DNA from: a virus
DNA: 34,655 nt
IMG/VR virus record: IMGVR_UViG_3300045988_136903
Strand: one strand, 5' to 3'
Position numbers and translations under genes: made by a program. Of this stretch, positions 1 to 25,703 are shown piece after piece (the stretch's first letter is position 1; every line of letters begins with the position of its first letter). Under the pieces are notes generated by a model that saw nothing but the letters and a program-made list of their open reading frames with translations, did not search any database and had not been told where the DNA came from.

Positions 1-99
1 GTTTTTTTTTTAATTTGAACACCAAGAGCATTAGTAACCATTAAGCCACCAACTTGTCTACCTTGTAATGCAGAACTTCCAATATGTTTACCATCTTTA
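1..99. repeat. window-terminal direct repeat, left copy (circular closure overlap)
   Basis: 99/99 identity with 34557-34655, read directly. Confidence 0.95.
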
Positions 100-6804: not shown

Positions 6805-8058
6805 TTAATCTATCAATTCGGCTTTTTCCCCTGTTAGTTTTTCCCATCTTTTTATAATAACATCACAATATTGCGGGTCTAACTCCATCATATAACATCT
6901 TCTTTGCATTTGTTCTGCTGCAATCAATGTTGTACCTGAACCACCGAAACAATCTACAACAACATCATTTTTATCAGTTGTTAATTCAATTGCTCTTGCA
7001 GGTAGTTCAACAGGAAAACAAGCCTTATGATTATCTAATTGAGTGTTGCCTGTTCCAATTCTCCAATAATTCGTAATACCTTTCCCTTTTTTCTTGTTAA
7101 AATATCCTCTTTGTTCTGTTGTACCCAAATAATAAAGTTCCATATCATTTGAAATACTTGCATCATCTCCTAACATCAAAATATCTTCATATTGTCTTGT
7201 TAGCATATCTTTTGAAACAATGGGCATTCCATGTCCTTTATCCCAAACAATCAATTCCATATATCTTAATCCTGACTCTTTTATCATTCTATATAGAATT
7301 TCAATAAACTCCCATCTAGTATTTTTGTTGTAACTAATATTCCAAAATAAATAACCTTTTAAATGTTCAATCCATGTCATTACAACATTGATATTAAAGT
7401 CTATATATTTTTTGCTTTCCAAATTATCTGTATAATTTTCATATAAATTTGCTCCCATATTGTATGGAGGGGATGTAAATAAGCATTTTATTTTTTCTCC
7501 ATTTAATAATCGTTTTACATCATCTCTATTTGTGCTATCTCCACACATTAACCTATTATTTCCTAATTTCCATATATCGCCCATTTTAGTAATAGGTTTT
7601 TTCTCAACTTCTTTCAATGCCTCTTTAACATCAAAATTATCATCTTGGATTTCCTCATTATTTTTTAATAAATCCGTAATTTCTTCTTCTGTAAATCCTG
7701 TTGCAAATAATTCTTCATCAGATAAATTTAATTCTTCAAATAATTCTTCTAATTTAGTTTCATCCCATAATCCTGAATTTTTATTTAATGATAAATTTAA
7801 TCTTTTTTCTTGTTTTTCTGTTAATTCTAATAATACACAATCGGCATCTTTCATTCCCAAATCTTTTAAAATATTGTATCTTTGATGCCCTCCTATAATT
7901 GTCATTGTTTTACTATTTACTATTATTGGATCAACTAATCCAAACTCTTGAATACTTGCTTTTATTCTTTGGTATCTTTCATCTTCCTTTTGTAATTCTA
8001 CTCTTGGATTGTATTTTGCCGGATTTAATTTCTCCAGACTTATTTTTTCTATTTTCAT
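6805..8058 (-). CDS. ParB-like nuclease domain fused to an N4-C/N6-A DNA methyltransferase
   Basis: N-terminal LNPAKYNPR...GGHQR (ParB N domain); FTSPPY catalytic motif; C-terminal FGGSGTT AdoMet motif; ATG 8058 with AGAAAGGA RBS. Confidence 0.8.
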   Translation of the reverse strand: MKIEKISLEKLNPAKYNPRVELQKEDERYQRIKASIQEFGLVDPIIVNSKTMTIIGGHQRYNILKDLGMKDADCVLLELTEKQEKRLNLSLNKNSGLWDETKLEELFEELNLSDEELFATGFTEEEITDLLKNNEEIQDDNFDVKEALKEVEKKPITKMGDIWKLGNNRLMCGDSTNRDDVKRLLNGEKIKCLFTSPPYNMGANLYENYTDNLESKKYIDFNINVVMTWIEHLKGYLFWNISYNKNTRWEFIEILYRMIKESGLRYMELIVWDKGHGMPIVSKDMLTRQYEDILMLGDDASISNDMELYYLGTTEQRGYFNKKKGKGITNYWRIGTGNTQLDNHKACFPVELPARAIELTTDKNDVVVDCFGGSGTTLIAAEQMQRRCYMMELDPQYCDVIIKRWEKLTGEKAELID

Positions 8059-8078
8059 GGCACTATCCTTTCTAATAT

Positions 8079-8116
8079 AAAAAATAAACCTACTTGTTTT
8101 TACTACAAATAGGTTT
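8079..8116 (-). terminator. intrinsic terminator in the leader of the late operon / end of the early operon
   Basis: 11-bp stem (8086-8096/8106-8116, one G-U pair), 9-nt loop, then a U6 run on the minus strand. Confidence 0.65.
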
Positions 8117-8192
8117 ATTTGGAAGAATTGATTATGCAACCAAAGGCATTACATTTTTAGTTTTCATCACACTATCATTTTAATTTATTGAT

Positions 8193-20656: not shown

Positions 20657-21655
20657 TTATTTTAATTTTCTATTTACTATTGCTTGAATATCACTATAAT
20701 TATATCCTGCTGCTTGAAGTTTTGCTTTTCTATCTGCACCATTTCCCCATAATCCTTTTATAACTTCATCAGCAATGGTTTCGTTAGACTTTTTATTAGA
20801 AACAGGTTTTGCACCTAATTTTTGATTAACAATAGATTGTATTACATTATAATTGTATCCTGCTTGTGTTAATCTATTTTTTCTATCTTCTCCATTACCC
20901 CAAGCACCATTTATTACTTCTTGTGCAATAGTTTCATTTGATTTAGTATTATTTTTAGTTGTTGAAGATGAACCATTTAATTTTTTATTAACAATATTTT
21001 GAATAGTATTGTAATCATATCCTGCATTTGCTAATCTGTTCTTTCTGTCATTTCCATTTCCCCATTGTCCTGCAATTACTTCATTTGCAATTTCTTCGTT
21101 TGATTTCTTTCCTGAACTTTGACTAGGAGTTGAAACATTACCACCATCTAATTTAGCATTTACAATTCTTGCTAATTCTGGTAATTTACTTTTTAAATAT
21201 GGTCCAGGGCAATTTGTATTTGCAAACATATCATGTCTTGTTAAACTACCATTTTTTGTTCCATCATAACTTAATCTGAAACCATATCTTCTACAAATGT
21301 CAACACAAAGATTTATTAAGGAATTCCATGCAGCATCTGATATTGTCCAATCTCCACCTGTTTTATTGTTTGAAACTTCTATTGTGATTGATTGGCAATC
21401 ATTCCAACTAGAACTAGATGTCCATGCCCTATTATTTTCATCAACACAACCTACTATTCCACCATCATTTCCTATGCAATAATTTGCACTTGCTTGTCTG
21501 TTTGGATTTTGGAATATTCTTGCACATTGTTCCCCACTTAATACACCTGCCATGTGATGAGGAGTTATTTTGCAAACTTTATATCCTTTTCTACCATTTG
21601 TGTAATTACTTCCTGATGCTAAAACTTTACTTTTAATTAAACTTGAAAATCCCAT
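20657..21655 (-). CDS. endolysin: N-acetylmuramoyl-L-alanine amidase (Amidase_2/PGRP) + 3 CW_7 repeats
   Basis: N-terminal amidase region (ITPHHMAG, TIEVSN); three repeats of ...VIxGxWGNGxDRKxxLxxAGYxY..IQ..VN.KL. Confidence 0.8.
   Translation of the reverse strand: MGFSSLIKSKVLASGSNYTNGRKGYKVCKITPHHMAGVLSGEQCARIFQNPNRQASANYCIGNDGGIVGCVDENNRAWTSSSSWNDCQSITIEVSNNKTGGDWTISDAAWNSLINLCVDICRRYGFRLSYDGTKNGSLTRHDMFANTNCPGPYLKSKLPELARIVNAKLDGGNVSTPSQSSGKKSNEEIANEVIAGQWGNGNDRKNRLANAGYDYNTIQNIVNKKLNGSSSTTKNNTKSNETIAQEVINGAWGNGEDRKNRLTQAGYNYNVIQSIVNQKLGAKPVSNKKSNETIADEVIKGLWGNGADRKAKLQAAGYNYSDIQAIVNRKLK
20660..21103 (-). repeat. three tandem CW_7-type cell-wall-binding repeats (coding)
   Basis: Repeated about 48-aa units visible in the protein and the DNA. 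Confidence 0.7.
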
Positions 21656-21996: not shown

Positions 21997-22006
21997 AGTA
22001 AACCTC

Positions 22007-22300
22007 CTATTTTAAAACAAGAGCAATAATCGCACCGACTATTGCTCCTACTATTGTTTTTATAATGGTATCTACAACACTTTCCCATTTTTTTTGTGGT
22101 TTTTGTTCTATACTTTCTAATCTTTCATTCATTTTGTTAACATCTTCTCTATTGGCTTTTGTTTCCATTGCTATTTCTTTTACTGCAATTGTCAATTCTT
22201 TAATTTCGCCAATATCATTTTCTAATTTATCCAATCTATGATGTGCTGATTTACAACTATCTTTATTTTCGATTATCATTTGAACATATTTTTCATCCAC
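22007..22300 (-). CDS. xhlA: XhlA-like lysis-associated membrane protein
   Basis: N-terminal coiled coil + C-terminal TM (IIKTIVGAIVGAIIALVL); position before the holin, as in PBSX. Confidence 0.55.
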   Translation of the reverse strand: MDEKYVQMIIENKDSCKSAHHRLDKLENDIGEIKELTIAVKEIAMETKANREDVNKMNERLESIEQKPQKKWESVVDTIIKTIVGAIVGAIIALVLK

Positions 22301-22330
22301 TAGACATTTCTCCTCTCTCGTAAAATTTAC

Positions 22331-22358
22331 AAAAAAATAGAACGATTATTTATCGTTC
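22331..22358 (-). terminator. rho-independent terminator after xkdX
   Basis: 7-bp stem GAACGAT/ATCGTTC then U7 on the minus strand. Confidence 0.65.
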
Positions 22359-22362
22359 CTAA

Positions 22363-22497
22363 CTATTTATAATCTTCTCCTGTTATTTCTTTATATTCTT
22401 TATTTGTTATCCATTTTCCTACTGCGTTATATACTCTTTTTTTACTCCATATTCCATTATTGTAATATGTTTTTACTTTTTCAAAATTCTTACTCAC
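22363..22497 (-). CDS. xkdX: XkdX-family small protein (44 aa)
   Basis: GTG 22497 with GGAGGTG RBS; SKNFEKVKTYYNNGIWSKKRVYNAVGKWITNKEYKEITGEDYK matches the XkdX pattern. Confidence 0.6.
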   Translation of the reverse strand: MSKNFEKVKTYYNNGIWSKKRVYNAVGKWITNKEYKEITGEDYK

Positions 22498-22498
22498 G

Positions 22499-22822
22499 TT
22501 ACACCTCCAAATCTACATCAGTCATCATTGCAAGATATTCGATGTTTCCTTGTATTTTAGCCATATTTATTTCTTCCTGTGATAATTCTCTTAATACAAA
22601 ATAATATCCATCTTCATAATGAACTATTTGCACTAATTCCATATTTTTATATTCATTAACAACTTTTTTACCATCTTCTATCCCTTCTATTGTAACCTTT
22701 AATAATTTTCCATCAAACATCTCTTTCTTAATTTCTGTCTCTGATACAAAATTATTTCCATTTAATCTAAGGTTTTCAATTGTTGTTCCATCAGATAGTG
22801 TAATTTTCCATGATTTTTCCAT
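22499..22822 (-). CDS. hypothetical tail-associated protein
   Basis: AGGAGG RBS; 107 aa; overlaps the RT 3' end by 61 nt. Confidence 0.5.
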   Translation of the reverse strand: MEKSWKITLSDGTTIENLRLNGNNFVSETEIKKEMFDGKLLKVTIEGIEDGKKVVNEYKNMELVQIVHYEDGYYFVLRELSQEEINMAKIQGNIEYLAMMTDVDLEV

Positions 22823-23886
22823 TTTATTTTCCTCCTAAACAAATCATAATATAATTGAGACATATTAGTTATCTGTTGCCTAGACATATTTTTATAATTT
22901 CCTGAAATCCAACTTTTAAATATATTCTCAATTTCTTCATAATTTAGTCTATTATTATCTAATAGCCTTTTATATGCTTTTAACTTTCTTCTTTGTCTAG
23001 TTATTGCTTTTGGACTTATTCTCCTTATAATTCTTCCTGTTTCTGTTAATTGATAACTTAATTGCAGAATTCTAAAAGGTTGTGATAATTTTACAATTCT
23101 TGTTTTTTTATCATTGATTATCAAACCCAATTCATTAGCAATAACTTTTATTTCTTTTTGTAATTGTTTTAAGAATTCCTTATCCTTATGAATGATATAA
23201 CTATCATCTGTGTATCTTCCATAATATTTACATCCTTTTACTATTTTTATGTAATTGTCAATTTTGGATGGATAAGCAATCCCTATATTTTGTGAGGGTT
23301 GACTTCCTATATCTACCCCTCTCCCATTTTTATTATCTACATTATAGACATCAAATAAATTTTTTAAAATCCACATAGTAATTTTTGCTTCTTCAGGGTT
23401 TACTTTTCTTAAAAAATATTGTAACTTCTTTAAACATAAATCATGAGGAATACTTGCATAATATCCGCTAAAATCAATTAACAATATGTATCCCTCATTA
23501 CTTTTATATTTTCTATAATATTGATGTAAGTGTGTTTCAAATCTTTTTCTATGAAAAGCCACACCTCTATTCTTTTGACTTGCACCATTATCATAGATTA
23601 AATATGGAGAAATAGCTGGACTTAAAACATTATCGCAAAGTAAATGATTAATTGTTTTATCAACCATATTATTACTTGTAATATGTCTTATTTTTCCTCG
23701 TTCATTTATAGTAAATTTTTTTCCTGCTACTTGTTTATATTTCCACTCTTTCAAATCTTTTAAAATTTGTGCTGTTTCTATCAAATGGTTCATTTCGAAC
23801 AATTGTGATTGATATTTAAAAGGTGCTCCTTGAATTGCCTTTGTTCCAGCTTCATAAATTTTATTTGCATCATAAAAAATATTCAT
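22762..23886 (-). CDS. DGR reverse transcriptase
   Basis: IGSQPSQ ([LIV]GxxxSQ, 23290-23310), YTDD (23203-23214), LLIDFSGYYASI motif A; probable ATG 23886 (the ORF is open to 23928). Confidence 0.9.
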   Translation of the reverse strand: MNIFYDANKIYEAGTKAIQGAPFKYQSQLFEMNHLIETAQILKDLKEWKYKQVAGKKFTINERGKIRHITSNNMVDKTINHLLCDNVLSPAISPYLIYDNGASQKNRGVAFHRKRFETHLHQYYRKYKSNEGYILLIDFSGYYASIPHDLCLKKLQYFLRKVNPEEAKITMWILKNLFDVYNVDNKNGRGVDIGSQPSQNIGIAYPSKIDNYIKIVKGCKYYGRYTDDSYIIHKDKEFLKQLQKEIKVIANELGLIINDKKTRIVKLSQPFRILQLSYQLTETGRIIRRISPKAITRQRRKLKAYKRLLDNNRLNYEEIENIFKSWISGNYKNMSRQQITNMSQLYYDLFRRKIKWKNHGKLHYLMEQQLKTLD

Positions 23887-24034
23887 AAAAATCACTTTAA
23901 TAGTATTACTGGTCGTAACCAAATACATAATGATTAGTATTTATCAATTCTGCTATTGAAGGGATAATCTTTCCTTTCCTTTTCCCATATCCATACGATG
24001 GAATCAAGTCCATATAAATAAATTGTATGGGTTG

Positions 24035-24130
24035 TGAAATCAGGACGAACACCGTTGACATTCGAAGCGTTGTTGTAACTCGAATTACCATTGTTGCTGA
24101 CATTCGCGAAATTCGTAGAAGAAACGACAT
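24035..24130 (-). repeat. DGR template repeat (TR), non-coding RNA template
   Basis: 96 nt aligning to 24805-24900; AAY-rich in the target frame. Confidence 0.9.
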
Positions 24131-24151
24131 ACAAAGATTACCCACTAATTA

Positions 24152-24664
24152 TTATTTTTTTATATTTTTTAAAAACCTATTGTCAGTTTGTCGAAGTGAT
24201 TTTATCATATTAAATTCTTTTTGAATTTCTAGAACCAAATTCATATACTTATTCAAATCAGCATATAAACATTCTCCTGCATATTGCAATTCATCTTGAA
24301 GTGCATTACAACAAGCCATAGCTCTGTCCATTTCTATACGTCTTTCTTCAAACTCTGACATATATGTTGGAAATATTGTATTTGCAATTCTTAAATGCCT
24401 ACTTATTCCTGTTGCTAATTCTATTACATTGTCTGATACTCTATTTATTTGATTTCTATAAAATTTATACATATTTTCTTTTATTCTTATTTGTTCCTTT
24501 TCATCAAGTCCTTTTATTCTATTGTTTATTTTCTCTTCTATTTTTGAAAATGTTATATAAAAATTATTTTCTGCTAAATTTGTTACTGCCATTCTTATCA
24601 TATATGCATTATGAATTGTTTGCAATTTTGATTCTTTTCTTTCACTTTTCTTTATCTCTGACAT
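24152..24664 (-). CDS. avd: Avd-like DGR accessory protein (helical, basic)
   Basis: Position between VR and TR; 170-aa all-helical basic protein. The call is mainly positional. Confidence 0.55.
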   Translation of the reverse strand: MSEIKKSERKESKLQTIHNAYMIRMAVTNLAENNFYITFSKIEEKINNRIKGLDEKEQIRIKENMYKFYRNQINRVSDNVIELATGISRHLRIANTIFPTYMSEFEERRIEMDRAMACCNALQDELQYAGECLYADLNKYMNLVLEIQKEFNMIKSLRQTDNRFLKNIKK

Positions 24665-24763
24665 TGTAAAATAATACTATTTCTCCTTTTCTATTTTTTC
24701 AACAGAAATTATATCATTTTTATTTTCTTATTTTAACTATCTTGAAAGCTAACTATACTATAT

Positions 24764-24784
24764 GACAGGGCATAAAGCCCTGTC
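24764..24784 (-). promoter_or_regulatory. GC-rich hairpin 21 nt downstream of VR (DGR target-recognition type)
   Basis: 8-bp stem GACAGGGC/GCCCTGTC, 5-nt loop, no U-run after it. Confidence 0.5.
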
Positions 24785-24793
24785 GATGTCTGA

Positions 24794-25666
24794 TTACACG
24801 ATTAGGAAAGCAGGACGAACACCGCCGACATTCGAAGCGGCGCGGTAACTCGAATTACCACCGCGGCCGACACTCGCGAAATTCGTAGAAGAAACGACAT
24901 CTCTTAACCAGTACCAATATCTATCTCCAGCATCAGTTCTAGCAATAATCGAATCATGTCTTAACCTGAATAATGATAATTGAGAATTGTCTATTTGATA
25001 ATTGTTAGGAAATGTAGATCCATTTGTAGCATTTTTGAATATTTGACAACCATAAACCATTATCTCATTCATCAATTCTATATCAGAATCGTACCATGTT
25101 CCTCCGGTCTCACATCCATTTGAAACTGCATTTTGTAAATGATTTCTATGCTTTAATATGTGACTTGTTTCAAAATCATTTTTTATTACTGTTTTAAATT
25201 GTGCTAAATTTGTTTTATACATCGCACTACCAATATAAGCTCCATCAGTTATATTACTAGCATTCATTTGTGCTGTTCCCATTATTCTTTCCGGAATTAC
25301 TAAAACATGTTGTGTCTTACATTCTGTATCTCCACAATGTAATCTGTAATTTATATCTGCAACAATATATTTTCTATTACTTGTTTTTCCAATAATATAA
25401 TCTCCTACAAAAATATTATCGAATGTTCCATCAGCAACTGCTTGACTAAATGTTTTTTCATTATATTTTTCTCTACCATAAAAGTATTCTGTAATATCTT
25501 TTCCTCTATATATTGCATTATGTCCTCCTGCATTACTAGGAACTATTACATTTAATAAATTTTCTATTACTGCCTTTTTTGTTGTTCCATTGGTAGTATC
25601 AACAAATGGAATAACATCTTTTTTAAGTGGCTTTCCTTCTGTTAATTCAGTAATCTTTTTTATCAT
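24794..25666 (-). CDS. DGR target: tail-fibre tip / receptor-binding protein with a C-type-lectin-fold-like variable C-terminus
   Basis: C-terminal WYWLRDVVSSTNFASVGRGGNSSYRAASNVGGVRPAFLIV carries the VR; follows the tail fibre genes. Confidence 0.8.
   Translation of the reverse strand: MIKKITELTEGKPLKKDVIPFVDTTNGTTKKAVIENLLNVIVPSNAGGHNAIYRGKDITEYFYGREKYNEKTFSQAVADGTFDNIFVGDYIIGKTSNRKYIVADINYRLHCGDTECKTQHVLVIPERIMGTAQMNASNITDGAYIGSAMYKTNLAQFKTVIKNDFETSHILKHRNHLQNAVSNGCETGGTWYDSDIELMNEIMVYGCQIFKNATNGSTFPNNYQIDNSQLSLFRLRHDSIIARTDAGDRYWYWLRDVVSSTNFASVGRGGNSSYRAASNVGGVRPAFLIV
24805..24900 (-). repeat. DGR variable repeat (VR)
   Basis: 82/96 identity to TR; every mismatch is opposite a TR adenine. 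Confidence 0.9.
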
Positions 25667-25703
25667 AATTTTACCTCCTATTTTTTTATTAAAAATTTCT
25701 TTT

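Follow-up and report, generated by a model that had tools for sequence, protein, structure and literature searches.

The 34,655-nt viral sequence analyzed here (the window) carries on its minus strand what we read, with a probability of roughly 93%, as a complete diversity-generating retroelement (DGR) that is active in its population and belongs to a temperate siphovirus lysogenising low-GC gut Clostridia. The carrier is a very common human-gut prophage. The activity refers to the population level, while the DGR of this particular genome is known from its sequence alone.

Organization of the cassette

Read along the minus strand, the cassette consists of tail genes, a target gene with a C-terminal variable region (VR), a GC-rich hairpin, an accessory ORF, the template region (TR), a spacer of 148 nt and the reverse transcriptase (RT) gene. 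The genes and repeats are:

27587-28444, minus strand: Dit gene, an upstream tail gene
26528-27583, minus strand: Sipho_Gp37/Tal-like gene, an upstream tail gene
25704-26528, minus strand: phrog_1220 gene, just upstream of the target
24794-25666, minus strand: DGR target gene, 290 aa, the last gene of the tail module
24805-24900, minus strand: VR, with its mutable part at 24825-24900
24152-24664, minus strand: accessory ORF, 170 aa, pI 9.05, between target and TR
24035-24130, minus strand: TR, 96 nt with 25 adenines
22762-23886, minus strand: DGR reverse transcriptase, 374 aa, with its ATG at 23886

By profile and motif comparison the RT was shown to be of the DGR type. DGR RTs carry [LIV]GxxxSQ, where the RTs of group II introns and retrons have QGxxxSP, and a catalytic YxDD. 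In our alignment the window RT has IGSQPSQ at the first of these motifs and YTDD at the second, where distant relatives have YMDD. It matches RVT_1 (9.5e-14) and phrog_1423 (6.7e-50) and scores far under the cut-offs of the group II intron, retron and Drt models. An in-frame ATG at 23928 is an alternative start and would give a protein of 388 aa.

The VR covers residues 256-288 of the 290-aa target. Residues 228-289 match DUF6273 weakly (23.0 bits against a cut-off of 23.5, E = 8e-5). The 1,545 target homologues mostly carry a precomputed PF19789 annotation, some of them have a fused PF12571 tail-collar fibre domain, and the conserved scaffold around the hypervariable columns reads WYWLRDVVSSxxFAxVxxxGxAxxxxASxxxGVRPAFLI. 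Searches of PDB with the target, both by sequence and by profile, were empty, and its AF2 model had a pLDDT of 36.5. Gut-phage DGRs have been described in which the target is a DUF6273 protein of C-lectin fold (PMC10743442, PMC11792537), and following this literature (PMC10743442) the VR domain may adopt the C-type-lectin-like DUF6273 fold. Homology to relatives breaks at about 25429-25453 within the target gene, so that the target N-termini differ among relatives.

Differences between the two repeats

A preliminary description of this DNA held that TR and VR align without gaps at an offset of 770 and differ only at adenines of the coding strand. Programmatic re-alignment returned the same ungapped pairing of 24035-24130 with 24805-24900, and all 14 differences were located at coding-strand TR adenines, exactly as described (P = 1.9e-10, hypergeometric, for 14 differences all on the 25 adenines among 96 positions). 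The plus-strand sites agree with those listed before, namely 24035, 24040, 24055, 24056, 24070, 24071, 24073, 24074, 24091, 24092, 24094, 24095, 24098 and 24103; each is a T on the plus-strand TR and hence an A on the coding minus strand. Recounting gave the same 25 adenines in 96 positions with 14 changed in the VR (nine A>G and five A>C), and the 71 non-A positions were all the same in both copies. Substitutions at non-A positions, which would speak against the claim, were looked for and none was found in the window pair. The mismatch 24035/24805 forms the final alignment column with no matching base past it, and the repeat search stops at 24036.

On the protein level, the change from ...NVSNNGNSSYNNASNVNGVRPDF in the TR to ...SVGRGGNSSYRAASNVGGVRPAF in the VR was reproduced, and the reported preference for AAY codons is borne out by nine such codons in the TR. 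Every one of the 25 TR adenines occupies codon position 1 or 2, and by enumeration no stop codon is reachable by TR adenine substitution. Searching the window with the A-masked TR pattern yielded two matches (0 expected), the TR and the VR themselves. As these are the only two sites, the window holds a single VR, and a second VR or target within it was ruled out by this search.

TR-to-VR transfer in the population

The adenine pattern had been interpreted as the footprint of recent or active mutagenic homing, to be checked by comparing VRs from independent isolates. Among relatives we observed 19 distinct VRs, and of the 25 TR-A positions 23 are variable in them. The TR was 100% identical in 22 of 22 copies in relatives, while the cassette overall is only about 93% identical, and nucleotide diversity was 0.132 in the VR versus 0.035 in the rest of the target gene. 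This first population set was drawn by a pattern that fixes the non-A bases of a 46-nt core, so that the absence of non-A variation in the core is circular there. An unbiased set (L127-L136) was fetched through the identical accessory protein. In these loci the own TR and own VR differ at 13-18 positions, all of them A but one. Comparing L128 with L133, we found 1 difference in 6,596 positions outside the VR and 14 in 96 inside; L134 and L135 have 5 differences outside and 16 inside. In near-identical prophages the rate of VR differences is thus about 1000-fold that outside the VR. A C>T polymorphism in the TR is mirrored in the cognate VR in this set, and so is the alternative whole TR scaffold of L131. 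Family-wide, in 58 distinct TR/VR pairs that were likewise gathered free of this bias, 809 of 851 mismatches are at TR-A positions (A>G 399, A>C 222, A>T 188). Taken together, these comparisons show real TR-to-VR transfer in the population. Mutagenic homing as previously proposed is supported by these data, except that two of the 14 differences in the window turned out to be fixed rather than products of recent mutagenesis (see below). When the cassette was compared by blastn with 50,697 deposited phage genomes, nothing matched.

A pair of direct repeats with a spacing of 770 bp might in principle be duplicates, so that ordinary partial gene duplication followed by point mutation, gene conversion or base-specific deamination might have produced the pattern without reverse transcription; the most frequent change, A>G (9 of 14 in the window, 49% family-wide), would fit deamination. 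However, about half of all changes are A>C and A>T, which deamination cannot yield, and the restriction of 14 out of 14 differences to A has the chance probability given above. Moreover, one copy is invariant and the other hypervariable, and an intact DGR-type RT and a structured spacer adjoin. We regard duplication without reverse transcription as effectively refuted.

VR diversity might also come mainly from recombination of existing VR alleles or tail-fibre modules among co-infecting prophages and not from de novo mutagenesis. The cassette is indeed mosaic, with the homology break in the target gene described above, near-identical prophages swap endolysin modules, and one locus (L017) combines the TR of one lineage with the VR scaffold of another. 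Recombination nevertheless leaves unexplained why variation is confined to TR-A positions and why 19 of 20 VRs are unique. Nor does it account for pairs that differ at 1-5 positions in the flanks and at 14-16 in the VR, without flanking variation hitch-hiking along, and even if alleles were exchanged they would be DGR-made. This explanation therefore appears very improbable to us, and mutagenic transfer from the TR remains the preferred reading.

Transfer boundary

The two fixed differences define where transfer ends. The relevant block is present in both repeats:

24811-24823 (VR copy) and 24041-24053 (TR copy), minus strand: A-free GC-rich block GGTGTTCGTCCTG, the IMH-like boundary

Directly after this block the VR reads CTTTCC and the TR ATTTCA. 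At 24040/24810 and 24035/24805 the VR base is C in 19 of 19 distinct VRs of relatives, and the distinction between GAUUUC in the TR and GCUUUC in the VR is kept family-wide, down to 40% RT identity. Both sites are therefore fixed TR/VR differences of the IMH*/IMH kind, so that 12 and not 14 differences are plausibly products of mutagenesis, and the transfer boundary falls at the GC-rich block that had been flagged earlier as a candidate IMH-like element. Variation is seen at adenines 5' of the block (up to 24055), and the two that lie on its 3' side are never transferred; the block is flanked by the last mutable adenines, 24055/24056, and by the first never-transferred adenine, 24040. It is the most conserved TR/VR segment across the family, and the predicted cDNA initiation site follows immediately on its 3' side. 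Its A-free state, its conservation and its place at the limit of transfer give functional support to the IMH-like assignment. An IMH lies at the VR 3' end, differs from IMH* and limits transfer, and the window element appears to share these three properties. The predicted first templated base is an A that was never seen transferred, and the cDNA initiation site is for this reason approximate.

RNA elements around the TR and in the spacer

Comparison of relatives pointed to several putative cis elements on both sides of the TR:

24133-24143, minus strand: 5' arm of an 11-bp duplex, GGGUAAUCUUU, 2 nt upstream of the TR
23984-24031, minus strand: stem-loop directly past the TR, an outer 6-bp CCCAUA/UAUGGG stem around an inner hairpin in MFE folds
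23973-23978, minus strand: GAAAGG motif, with GAAA (23978-23975) complementary to UUUC of the TR (24039-24036)
23962-23972, minus strand: 3' arm of the duplex, AAAGAUUAUCC, spacer positions 63-73
23933-23959, minus strand: 5-bp stem-loop (pairs 23955-23959/23944-23948) plus the conserved A-rich UAAAUACUAA
23903-23926, minus strand: 9-bp stem with a UACG tetraloop (23914-23917), shortly before the start of the RT gene

The fold of TR and spacer as a single sequence was no stabler than shuffles (z = +0.5), and the structures emerged through comparison alone. An Rfam scan of 22000-26000 found nothing relevant and no match to a DGR RNA family. Per-locus RNAduplex z-scores for the duplex between upstream sequence and spacer were weak (median -1.5), since A/U- and purine-rich shuffles pair readily, and motif-anchored covariation was used as the test in their place. 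Across 33 distinct sequences 98.1% of the cells were paired and 7 of the 11 pairs had changes in both partners; in 500 shuffles the observed value was never attained, and pairing in slid controls was 57-64%. This supports the view that the 11-bp duplex bracketing the TR is an analogue of the avd:Sp 'cPRT Stop' duplex of BPP-1, in which likewise sequence upstream of the TR pairs with spacer positions around 59-73.

Within the GAAAGG motif the AAAGG part never varies, and 32 of the 33 distinct sequences also have the first G. Variants of the GAAA:UUUC pairing are compensatory: AAAA:UUUU in L118, CAAA:UUUG in L046 and a G-U pair in L107. By analogy, the priming adenosine is predicted to be 23975 and the first templated base 24040. 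The geometry at 23975 (an A, then 2 nt, then the duplex) matches that of Sp A56 and Sp59-70 in BPP-1, where the adenosine is also followed by G and the preceding bases pair with the TR 3' end. Pairing and covariation thus point to counterparts of both the cPRT Stop duplex and the primer duplex of Handa et al.

The remaining elements are likewise assigned by position and conservation. The stem-loop past the TR recurs in the same topology with other stem sequences in most of 49 relatives, with weak single-sequence z-scores (median -1.2 for the 49), and could be the positional analogue of the Avd-binding stem-loop. RNAalifold on 42 spacers gave 84-100% pairing for the stem at 23933-23959, with three pair types at each of three positions; this element would correspond to the cPRT Stop stem-loop plus adenosines, a short stem-loop and adenosines also following the duplex in BPP-1. 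For the UACG-capped stem the same alignment gave 95-100% pairing and 2-6 pair types per position, and it may be the positional analogue of the RT-binding stem-loop.

Hairpin downstream of the VR

Past the VR we found a further element:

24764-24784, minus strand: hairpin/cruciform 20 nt past the VR, with an 8-bp stem (GACAGGGC/GCCCTGTC) and a 5-nt loop UUUAU

Six of the 8 bp are GC pairs, and the DNA fold has a z-score of -3.9, none of 200 shuffles being as stable. Nearly all of 50 surveyed family members have a GC-rich stem of 6-11 bp with unrelated sequence, mostly 13-30 nt past the VR and in most cases with a 5-nt loop of consensus YUYRU. An intrinsic terminator was considered and rejected, as no U-tract follows and the terminator scan did not call the site. 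DGR hairpins as defined by Guo et al. 2011 have a stem of 7-10 bp and a 4-nt GRNA loop and lie 4-34 bp from the VR, and in BPP-1 both size and sequence of this loop are critical (PMC3240598). The window hairpin agrees with this definition in stem and distance, but differs in the loop (5 nt, YUYRU).

The cis elements also bear on whether this copy still works. The window alone does not separate past from present activity, and the DGR of this genome could be a recently inactivated relic, with a TR/VR pattern inherited from an active ancestor and no homing now. Its RT has YTDD where distant relatives have YMDD and is only 87% identical to that of the commonest lineage, and a 100% identical target protein is found on two contigs, from which we conclude that the VR allele is at least transiently stable. 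On the other hand, every ORF is intact, the TR, GAAAGG, both duplex arms and the hairpin all fit the family consensus, and the TR is identical to that of lineages with clearly recent VR turnover. We hence consider a relic improbable and favor a DGR that is active in its population.

Accessory ORF

From its position and predicted fold the accessory ORF may be Avd-like, and its size and basic pI would also suit this reading. The protein has no Pfam, PHROG, NCBIfam or PDB sequence match, and these resources likewise revealed no Avd family when searched with 30 homologues and with two distant ones. Its AF2 model (pLDDT 82.7) is all-helical with five predicted helices. The fold matches with the best target coverage, 2rld and 2gsc, are S23/IVS four-helix bundles (TM 0.72-0.83, with a weak E of about 0.06). 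In a BFVD fold search the top match was an 'Avd-like protein' and 4 of the 20 best were Avd-like, again with weak E-values (0.04-0.06). As in the Avd/S23 family, the protein is basic and all-helical and superposes best on 2rld and 2gsc; it differs from this family in being about 40 residues longer, in its five predicted helices and in Foldseek E-values that are not significant. The distant relatives L045 and L046 have accessory homologues in the same slot, and the exact window protein appears in 6,883 indexed blocks of public assemblies. A candidate promoter upstream of the gene (24736-24708) is not claimed, because promoter-like sites occur at shuffle frequency (28 versus 26.9 in shuffles, no excess).

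Proposed mechanism

Following the BPP-1 model, minus-strand transcription would cover the avd-like gene, TR, spacer and probably the RT gene. In the folded RNA the 11 nt upstream of the TR would pair with spacer positions 63-73, and the spacer GAAA ending at A23975 with the UUUC at the TR 3' end. RT and Avd-like protein would then prime cDNA in cis from A23975 and copy the TR from about 24040 toward 24130, with misincorporation at template adenines and a halt at the duplex. At the 3' end of the tail receptor-binding gene, the VR would then be exchanged for the cDNA, with a downstream junction inside the A-free GGTGTTCGTCCTG and with help from the GC-rich hairpin that lies 20 nt further on. In this way as many as 23 adenines, spread over 14 codons, could be randomised, corresponding to about 4e13 possible proteins with no reachable stop, and the randomised residues would lie on the surface of the C-type-lectin-like DUF6273 domain. 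A switch of host-receptor specificity is the likely benefit. Four functions are inferred by analogy with BPP-1, namely priming in cis at A23975, the parts played by the Avd-like protein and by the hairpin, and the binding of a receptor by the target.

Comparison with known systems

The reference mechanism is that of the prototype DGR, found in Bordetella phage BPP-1 (PMC6182149, bioRxiv 10.1101/2023.10.23.563531, PMC3240598). The order of target, accessory gene, TR, spacer and RT is the same as in BPP-1 (mtd - avd - TR - brt), and both systems have the VR at the C-terminus of a tail receptor-binding protein, or what is probably one in the window, adenine-specific mutagenesis with AAY codon design, and a spacer of about 140-150 nt. 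They also share an A-free GC-rich element at the TR/VR 3' end with fixed differences beyond it, in the logic of IMH* and IMH, and a GC-rich 8-bp hairpin past the VR inside the reported range of 4-34 bp. The systems differ in several dimensions: the TR has 96 nt in the window and 134 nt in BPP-1, the IMH-like block comprises 13 nt of mixed G/C/T as opposed to (G/C)14 plus 21 bp, the hairpin has a 5-nt loop (YUYRU in the window family) instead of 4-nt GRNA, and the accessory protein has 170 aa and no Avd family by sequence, compared with 128 aa. Templating is predicted to begin at an A (GAUUUC), whereas in BPP-1 it begins at a G in a GC-rich stretch, and the 5' duplex arm is intergenic, past the accessory gene, whereas in BPP-1 it lies inside the accessory coding sequence. 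The 290-aa DUF6273 target has no sequence similarity to Mtd of BPP-1 and, unlike BPP-1, the window phage has a Gram-positive gut anaerobe as host.

Further parallels are found in nd4/nd12-like phages ('tgt2', 234-294 aa) and Faecalibacterium prophages, which likewise have a single-domain DUF6273-type target, about 290 aa long, whose extreme C-terminus contains the VR. They too are temperate gut Firmicutes phages, with about 21-25 TR adenines, and have the signature of identical TR and different VRs across related genomes (PMC10743442). In contrast to these DGRs, the window phage has one VR and no tentaclin-type second target. The likeness to both groups is one of described features. In blastn, no deposited phage genome was similar.

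We raise tentatively, and with more doubt than confidence, that the large clade of gut-Firmicutes phage DGRs to which this one belongs (RT identity down to about 40%) is a distinct mechanistic subtype. Four features may characterize it: a homing hairpin whose conserved loop is 5 nt long and pyrimidine-rich (YUYRU) and not a 4-nt GRNA loop, an enlarged Avd of 170-210 aa that escapes current family models, a near-invariant GAAAGG motif that may serve in priming, and cDNA initiation that may occur opposite an adenine never transferred to the VR. If true, and recognition rules do differ, the clade would give parts orthogonal to those of BPP-1 for engineered DGRs, as well as a sequence-only rule for finding priming sites and transfer boundaries.

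DGRs are especially common in human-gut phages and are, to our knowledge, the most powerful natural protein diversifiers. The window DGR is a well-known kind of system and reveals no new principle, but it is an unusually clean and very prevalent example. We know of only one model phage in which the RNA and DNA cis elements of a DGR have been defined experimentally. Natural variation in the clade described here records the transfer from TR to VR, the point where it ends and the majority of these cis elements. It can thereby serve as a comparative test of the generality of the BPP-1 mechanism in Gram-positive gut phages, and the window DGR as a well-annotated candidate for experiments or engineering.

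Layout of the genome and of the DGR cassette

The window carries the whole genome of a temperate siphovirus, 34,556 bp long and with a GC content of 27.5%, plus a 99-bp terminal repeat. The direct terminal repeat is exact (window 1-99 and 34557-34655), and the genome is therefore complete and either circularly assembled or terminally redundant. Its genes include an integrase, a CI-like repressor, RecT, terminase, portal, tape measure protein, Dit, a Gp37/Tal-like protein and a lysis module. A 444-aa ORF (6805-8139, minus strand) combines ParB-like nuclease/partition and DNA methyltransferase domains (phrog_498, phrog_620). The DGR cassette has the following parts:

24794-25666, minus strand: target ORF, 290 aa, closing the tail module; its last 33 codons are the variable region (VR)
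24764-24784, minus strand: GC-rich hairpin with an 8-bp stem, after the target ORF
24152-24664, minus strand: accessory ORF, 170 aa, between hairpin and template region (TR)
24035-24130, minus strand: TR, 96 nt, after the accessory ORF
148 nt, minus strand: non-coding spacer between TR and reverse transcriptase (RT)
22762-23886, minus strand: RT, 374 aa, after the spacer

In profile searches the RT matches RVT_1 and phrog_1423; it carries the DGR-type motifs IGSQPSQ and YTDD and stays far under the thresholds set for group II intron, retron and Drt models. At residues ~224-228 the YTDD of the window is YMDD in two relatives of 41-45% identity (L045 and L046). A 107-aa ORF (22499-22822, minus strand) shares 61 nt with the 3' end of the RT gene. 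Profile searches gave it no family match. All close relatives keep it as a 106-aa gene, with an XkdX-like small ORF after it, and it may be part of the tail/lysis module and not of the DGR.

Differences between TR and VR fall on adenines

Programmatic re-alignment of TR 24035-24130 with VR 24805-24900 was gapless at an offset of 770 and reproduced exactly the 14 mismatches of the preliminary description (24035, 24040, 24055, 24056, 24070, 24071, 24073, 24074, 24091, 24092, 24094, 24095, 24098 and 24103). At each of them the TR has T on the plus strand, which is A on the coding minus strand. The TR contains 25 A in 96 nt, and all 71 non-A positions are the same in the VR, so that the claimed absence of non-A substitutions inside the repeat holds; the chance of 14 of 14 mismatches falling on A is 1.9e-10 (hypergeometric). 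Nine of the changes are A>G and five A>C. In the frame of the VR-containing ORF every one of the 25 TR adenines lies at codon position 1 or 2, and nine codons are AAY. The A-masked TR pattern has two sites in the window, TR and VR only, and a repeat search of the window recovered the same pair independently (D3). A 66-aa ORF, beginning MYVVSSTNFANVSNNGNSSYNNASNVNGVRPDF, runs through the TR in the VR frame (23934-24134, minus strand); this is almost certainly no gene but a side effect of the TR copying coding sequence.

Information flow from TR to VR among related prophages

For the population comparison we used three sets of loci. The first, 28 loci from viral, genome and metagenome collections, was retrieved with the A-masked TR/VR pattern, which fixed the non-A bases of its 46-nt core; unbiased sets were therefore used as well. 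In the first set the cassette is ~93% identical overall and all 22 TR copies are identical, against 19 distinct sequences among 20 VR copies, which vary at 23 of the 25 TR-A positions. Nucleotide diversity was 0.132 in the VR, 0.035 in the target gene outside the VR, 0.009 in the accessory gene and 0.002 in the spacer. The second set was collected by RT homology, from 93% down to 40% RT identity, and 57 of its 58 loci have a TR/VR pair in the same place. Across 58 distinct pairs (including that of the window) 809 of 851 mismatches are at TR adenines (A>G 399, A>C 222, A>T 188).

The third set, which gave the decisive evidence, consists of ten loci (L127-L136) retrieved by their identical accessory protein. 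Here each TR differs from its own VR at 13-18 positions, all but one of them at A. Between L128 and L133 there is a single difference in 6,596 aligned positions outside the VR, against 14 in the 96 inside; for L134 and L135 the numbers are 5 and 16. Four loci (L127, L129, L130 and L136) share a TR with a C>T change at the non-A position equivalent to 24069 in the window, synonymous (AACAACGCT to AACAATGCT), and the same change is found in the VRs of exactly these four, in effect a marker-transfer experiment done by nature. In L131, TR and VR share an alternative scaffold, with 15 of 15 mismatches between them at A. The near-identical pairs, the marker and the alternative scaffold together show that information flows from TR to VR. 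This flow is recent on the timescale on which these prophages diverged, in line with the recent or active homing proposed before.

At one locus (L017:2898-5583; ENA OROD01004952, 7.8 kb, coverage 1.9x) TR and VR differ at 10 non-A positions. Its TR is the alternative scaffold of L131 and L041 and its VR has the scaffold of the common TR. This is either a recombined-in TR that has not yet homed or a chimeric low-coverage assembly; if real, the DGR was caught between TR replacement and its first homing event.

The 3' boundary of transfer

At the two differences nearest the 3' end, 24040/24810 and 24035/24805, every VR examined has C, and 24035 is the terminal column of the alignment. The corresponding TR GAUUUC and VR GCUUUC are kept family-wide down to 40% RT identity. 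These two positions are thus fixed TR/VR differences and not products of mutagenesis. This is the single correction to the preliminary description, whose reading of the 14 differences as a homing footprint stands for the others; its observation was confirmed and its interpretation is otherwise supported. Since 24040 and 24035 are fixed and never transferred, the limit of information transfer lies between 24055 and 24040, in or at the A-free block GGTGTTCGTCCTG; no other part of the repeat is as conserved across the family. The block had been proposed as an IMH-like element, and its lack of A, its conservation and its place at the boundary support that role in a functional sense, with CTTTCC (VR) and ATTTCA (TR) as putative IMH and IMH*. 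In BPP-1, the Bordetella phage with the prototype DGR, the IMH consists of (GC)14 and 21 bp (PMC3240598), whereas the element of the window differs in sequence.

Homing of BPP-1 requires a GC-rich hairpin/cruciform 4-34 bp after the VR (PMC3240598). The hairpin of the window follows the VR at a distance of 20 nt, and none of 200 shuffles was as stable (z=-3.9); no U-tract was found after it (24764-24784). Nearly every family locus has a GC-rich stem of 6-11 bp and unrelated sequence, mostly 13-30 nt after the VR. The loop of BPP-1 is a 4-nt GRNA, whereas most loci of the window's family have 5 pyrimidine-rich nucleotides with the consensus YUYRU (UUUAU, CUUGU, CUCGU, URUAU). Family-wide, a repeated TAATC motif is often present between VR and hairpin.

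RNA elements and a candidate priming site

In BPP-1, spacer A56 primes cDNA synthesis in cis, the spacer bases up to and including A56 being paired with the 3' end of the TR, and the 'cPRT Stop' consists of an 11-bp duplex of the avd 3' end with Sp59-70, a short stem-loop and adenosines (PMC6182149; bioRxiv 10.1101/2023.10.23.563531). The window has two complementary stretches, GGGUAAUCUUU at 24143-24133, whose end lies 2 nt before the TR, and AAAGAUUAUCC at 23972-23962, which corresponds to positions 63-73 of the spacer. With arms anchored by sequence motifs only, 98.1% of the cells of this 11-bp duplex were paired in 33 distinct family members and 7 of 11 pairs showed changes on both sides (60 cells); 0 of 500 shuffles reached these values, and sliding the partner strand left 57-64% paired.

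Directly 5' of the spacer arm stands GAAAGG, with AAAGG invariant and the first G in 32 of 33 sequences. Its last A, 23975, is followed by G, one nucleotide and the duplex, the geometry of BPP-1. GAAA is complementary to UUUC of the TR (24039-24036), and the two covary in rare variants (L118 AAAA:UUUU, L046 CAAA:UUUG, a G-U pair in L107). Because of this geometry, complementarity and covariation we infer that cis-priming would occur at A23975 and that 24040 would be the first base copied; this would explain why the adenines 24040 and 24035 are never transferred to the VR. The consensus structure of 42 spacers further contains a covarying 5-bp stem-loop (23959-23944), followed by conserved UAAAUACUAA, and a 9-bp stem (23926-23903) that covaries strongly and ends in a UACG tetraloop. 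A candidate stem-loop right after the TR (~24031-23984) recurs in most relatives' single-sequence folds.

Accessory and target proteins

Profile and PDB searches with the accessory protein and its homologues found no sequence family. The protein is basic (pI 9.05) and was modelled with confidence as helical throughout (pLDDT 82.7). By target coverage the best Foldseek matches are the S23/IVS four-helix-bundle proteins 2rld and 2gsc (TM 0.72-0.83), with the weak E-values usual for helical bundles. In a viral structure library, also with weak E-values, the top match is an 'Avd-like protein', as are 4 of the top 20 by annotation. Avd has been structurally assigned to the S23/IVS family (bioRxiv 10.1101/2023.10.23.563531). 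Homologues occupy the same slot in the most distant relatives, and we call the protein Avd-like by position and predicted fold.

The DUF6273 match of the target is borderline. Most of its 1,545 homologues are annotated PF19789, some fused to a tail-collar fibre domain, and their alignment has hypervariable columns within the conserved scaffold WYWLRDVVSSxxFAxVxxxGxAxxxxASxxxGVRPAFLI. The AlphaFold model failed (pLDDT 36.5) and sequence searches against the PDB gave no match; the predicted C-type-lectin fold therefore rests on the DUF6273 match and on models published for gut-phage DGR targets with DUF6273 (PMC10743442, PMC11792537). By enumeration, A-to-N changes at the 23 transferable adenines affect 14 codons and yield 7e13 DNA and 3.9e13 protein variants, and no stop codon can be reached.

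Nucleotide homology among relatives ends at ~25429-25453 (window 25429-25666; genes of L127-L136 at 2011-2871). The first ~75 residues of the target vary by lineage (290 aa vs 286 aa), and some homologues have 423 aa with PF12571, a tail-collar fibre domain, at the N-terminus, which suggests that the virion-attachment end is exchanged as a module.

Host and relation to known systems

Some of the matching contigs exceed 1 Mb, which demonstrates a prophage state, and human-gut MAGs labelled Clostridia bacterium and uncultured Clostridium sp. are among the matches; the exact accessory protein occurs in 6,883 indexed blocks of an assembly collection. The endolysin, Amidase_2 with three CW_7 repeats, fits a Gram-positive host. 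Its three cell-wall-binding repeats correspond to three tandem 136-nt DNA copies of 66-71% identity (20663-21113, family D1). Prophages with the identical accessory protein have either of two endolysins, Amidase_2 + CW_7 or GH25 + CW_7 + LysM (~6060-6513 in L127-L136; 20657-21655 in the window); the lysis module beside the DGR has been exchanged.

Among described systems, gut-phage DGRs with DUF6273 targets come closest, and the element belongs to an already known kind of system. Its clade-specific details, namely the 5-nt loop, the enlarged Avd-like protein that family models do not recognise, GAAAGG and the predicted initiation opposite an untransferred adenine, matter to specialists only. 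As far as sequence can tell, all defining features of a DGR are present except a sequence-level Avd match and the GRNA tetraloop, and the element appears to work like the DGR of BPP-1.
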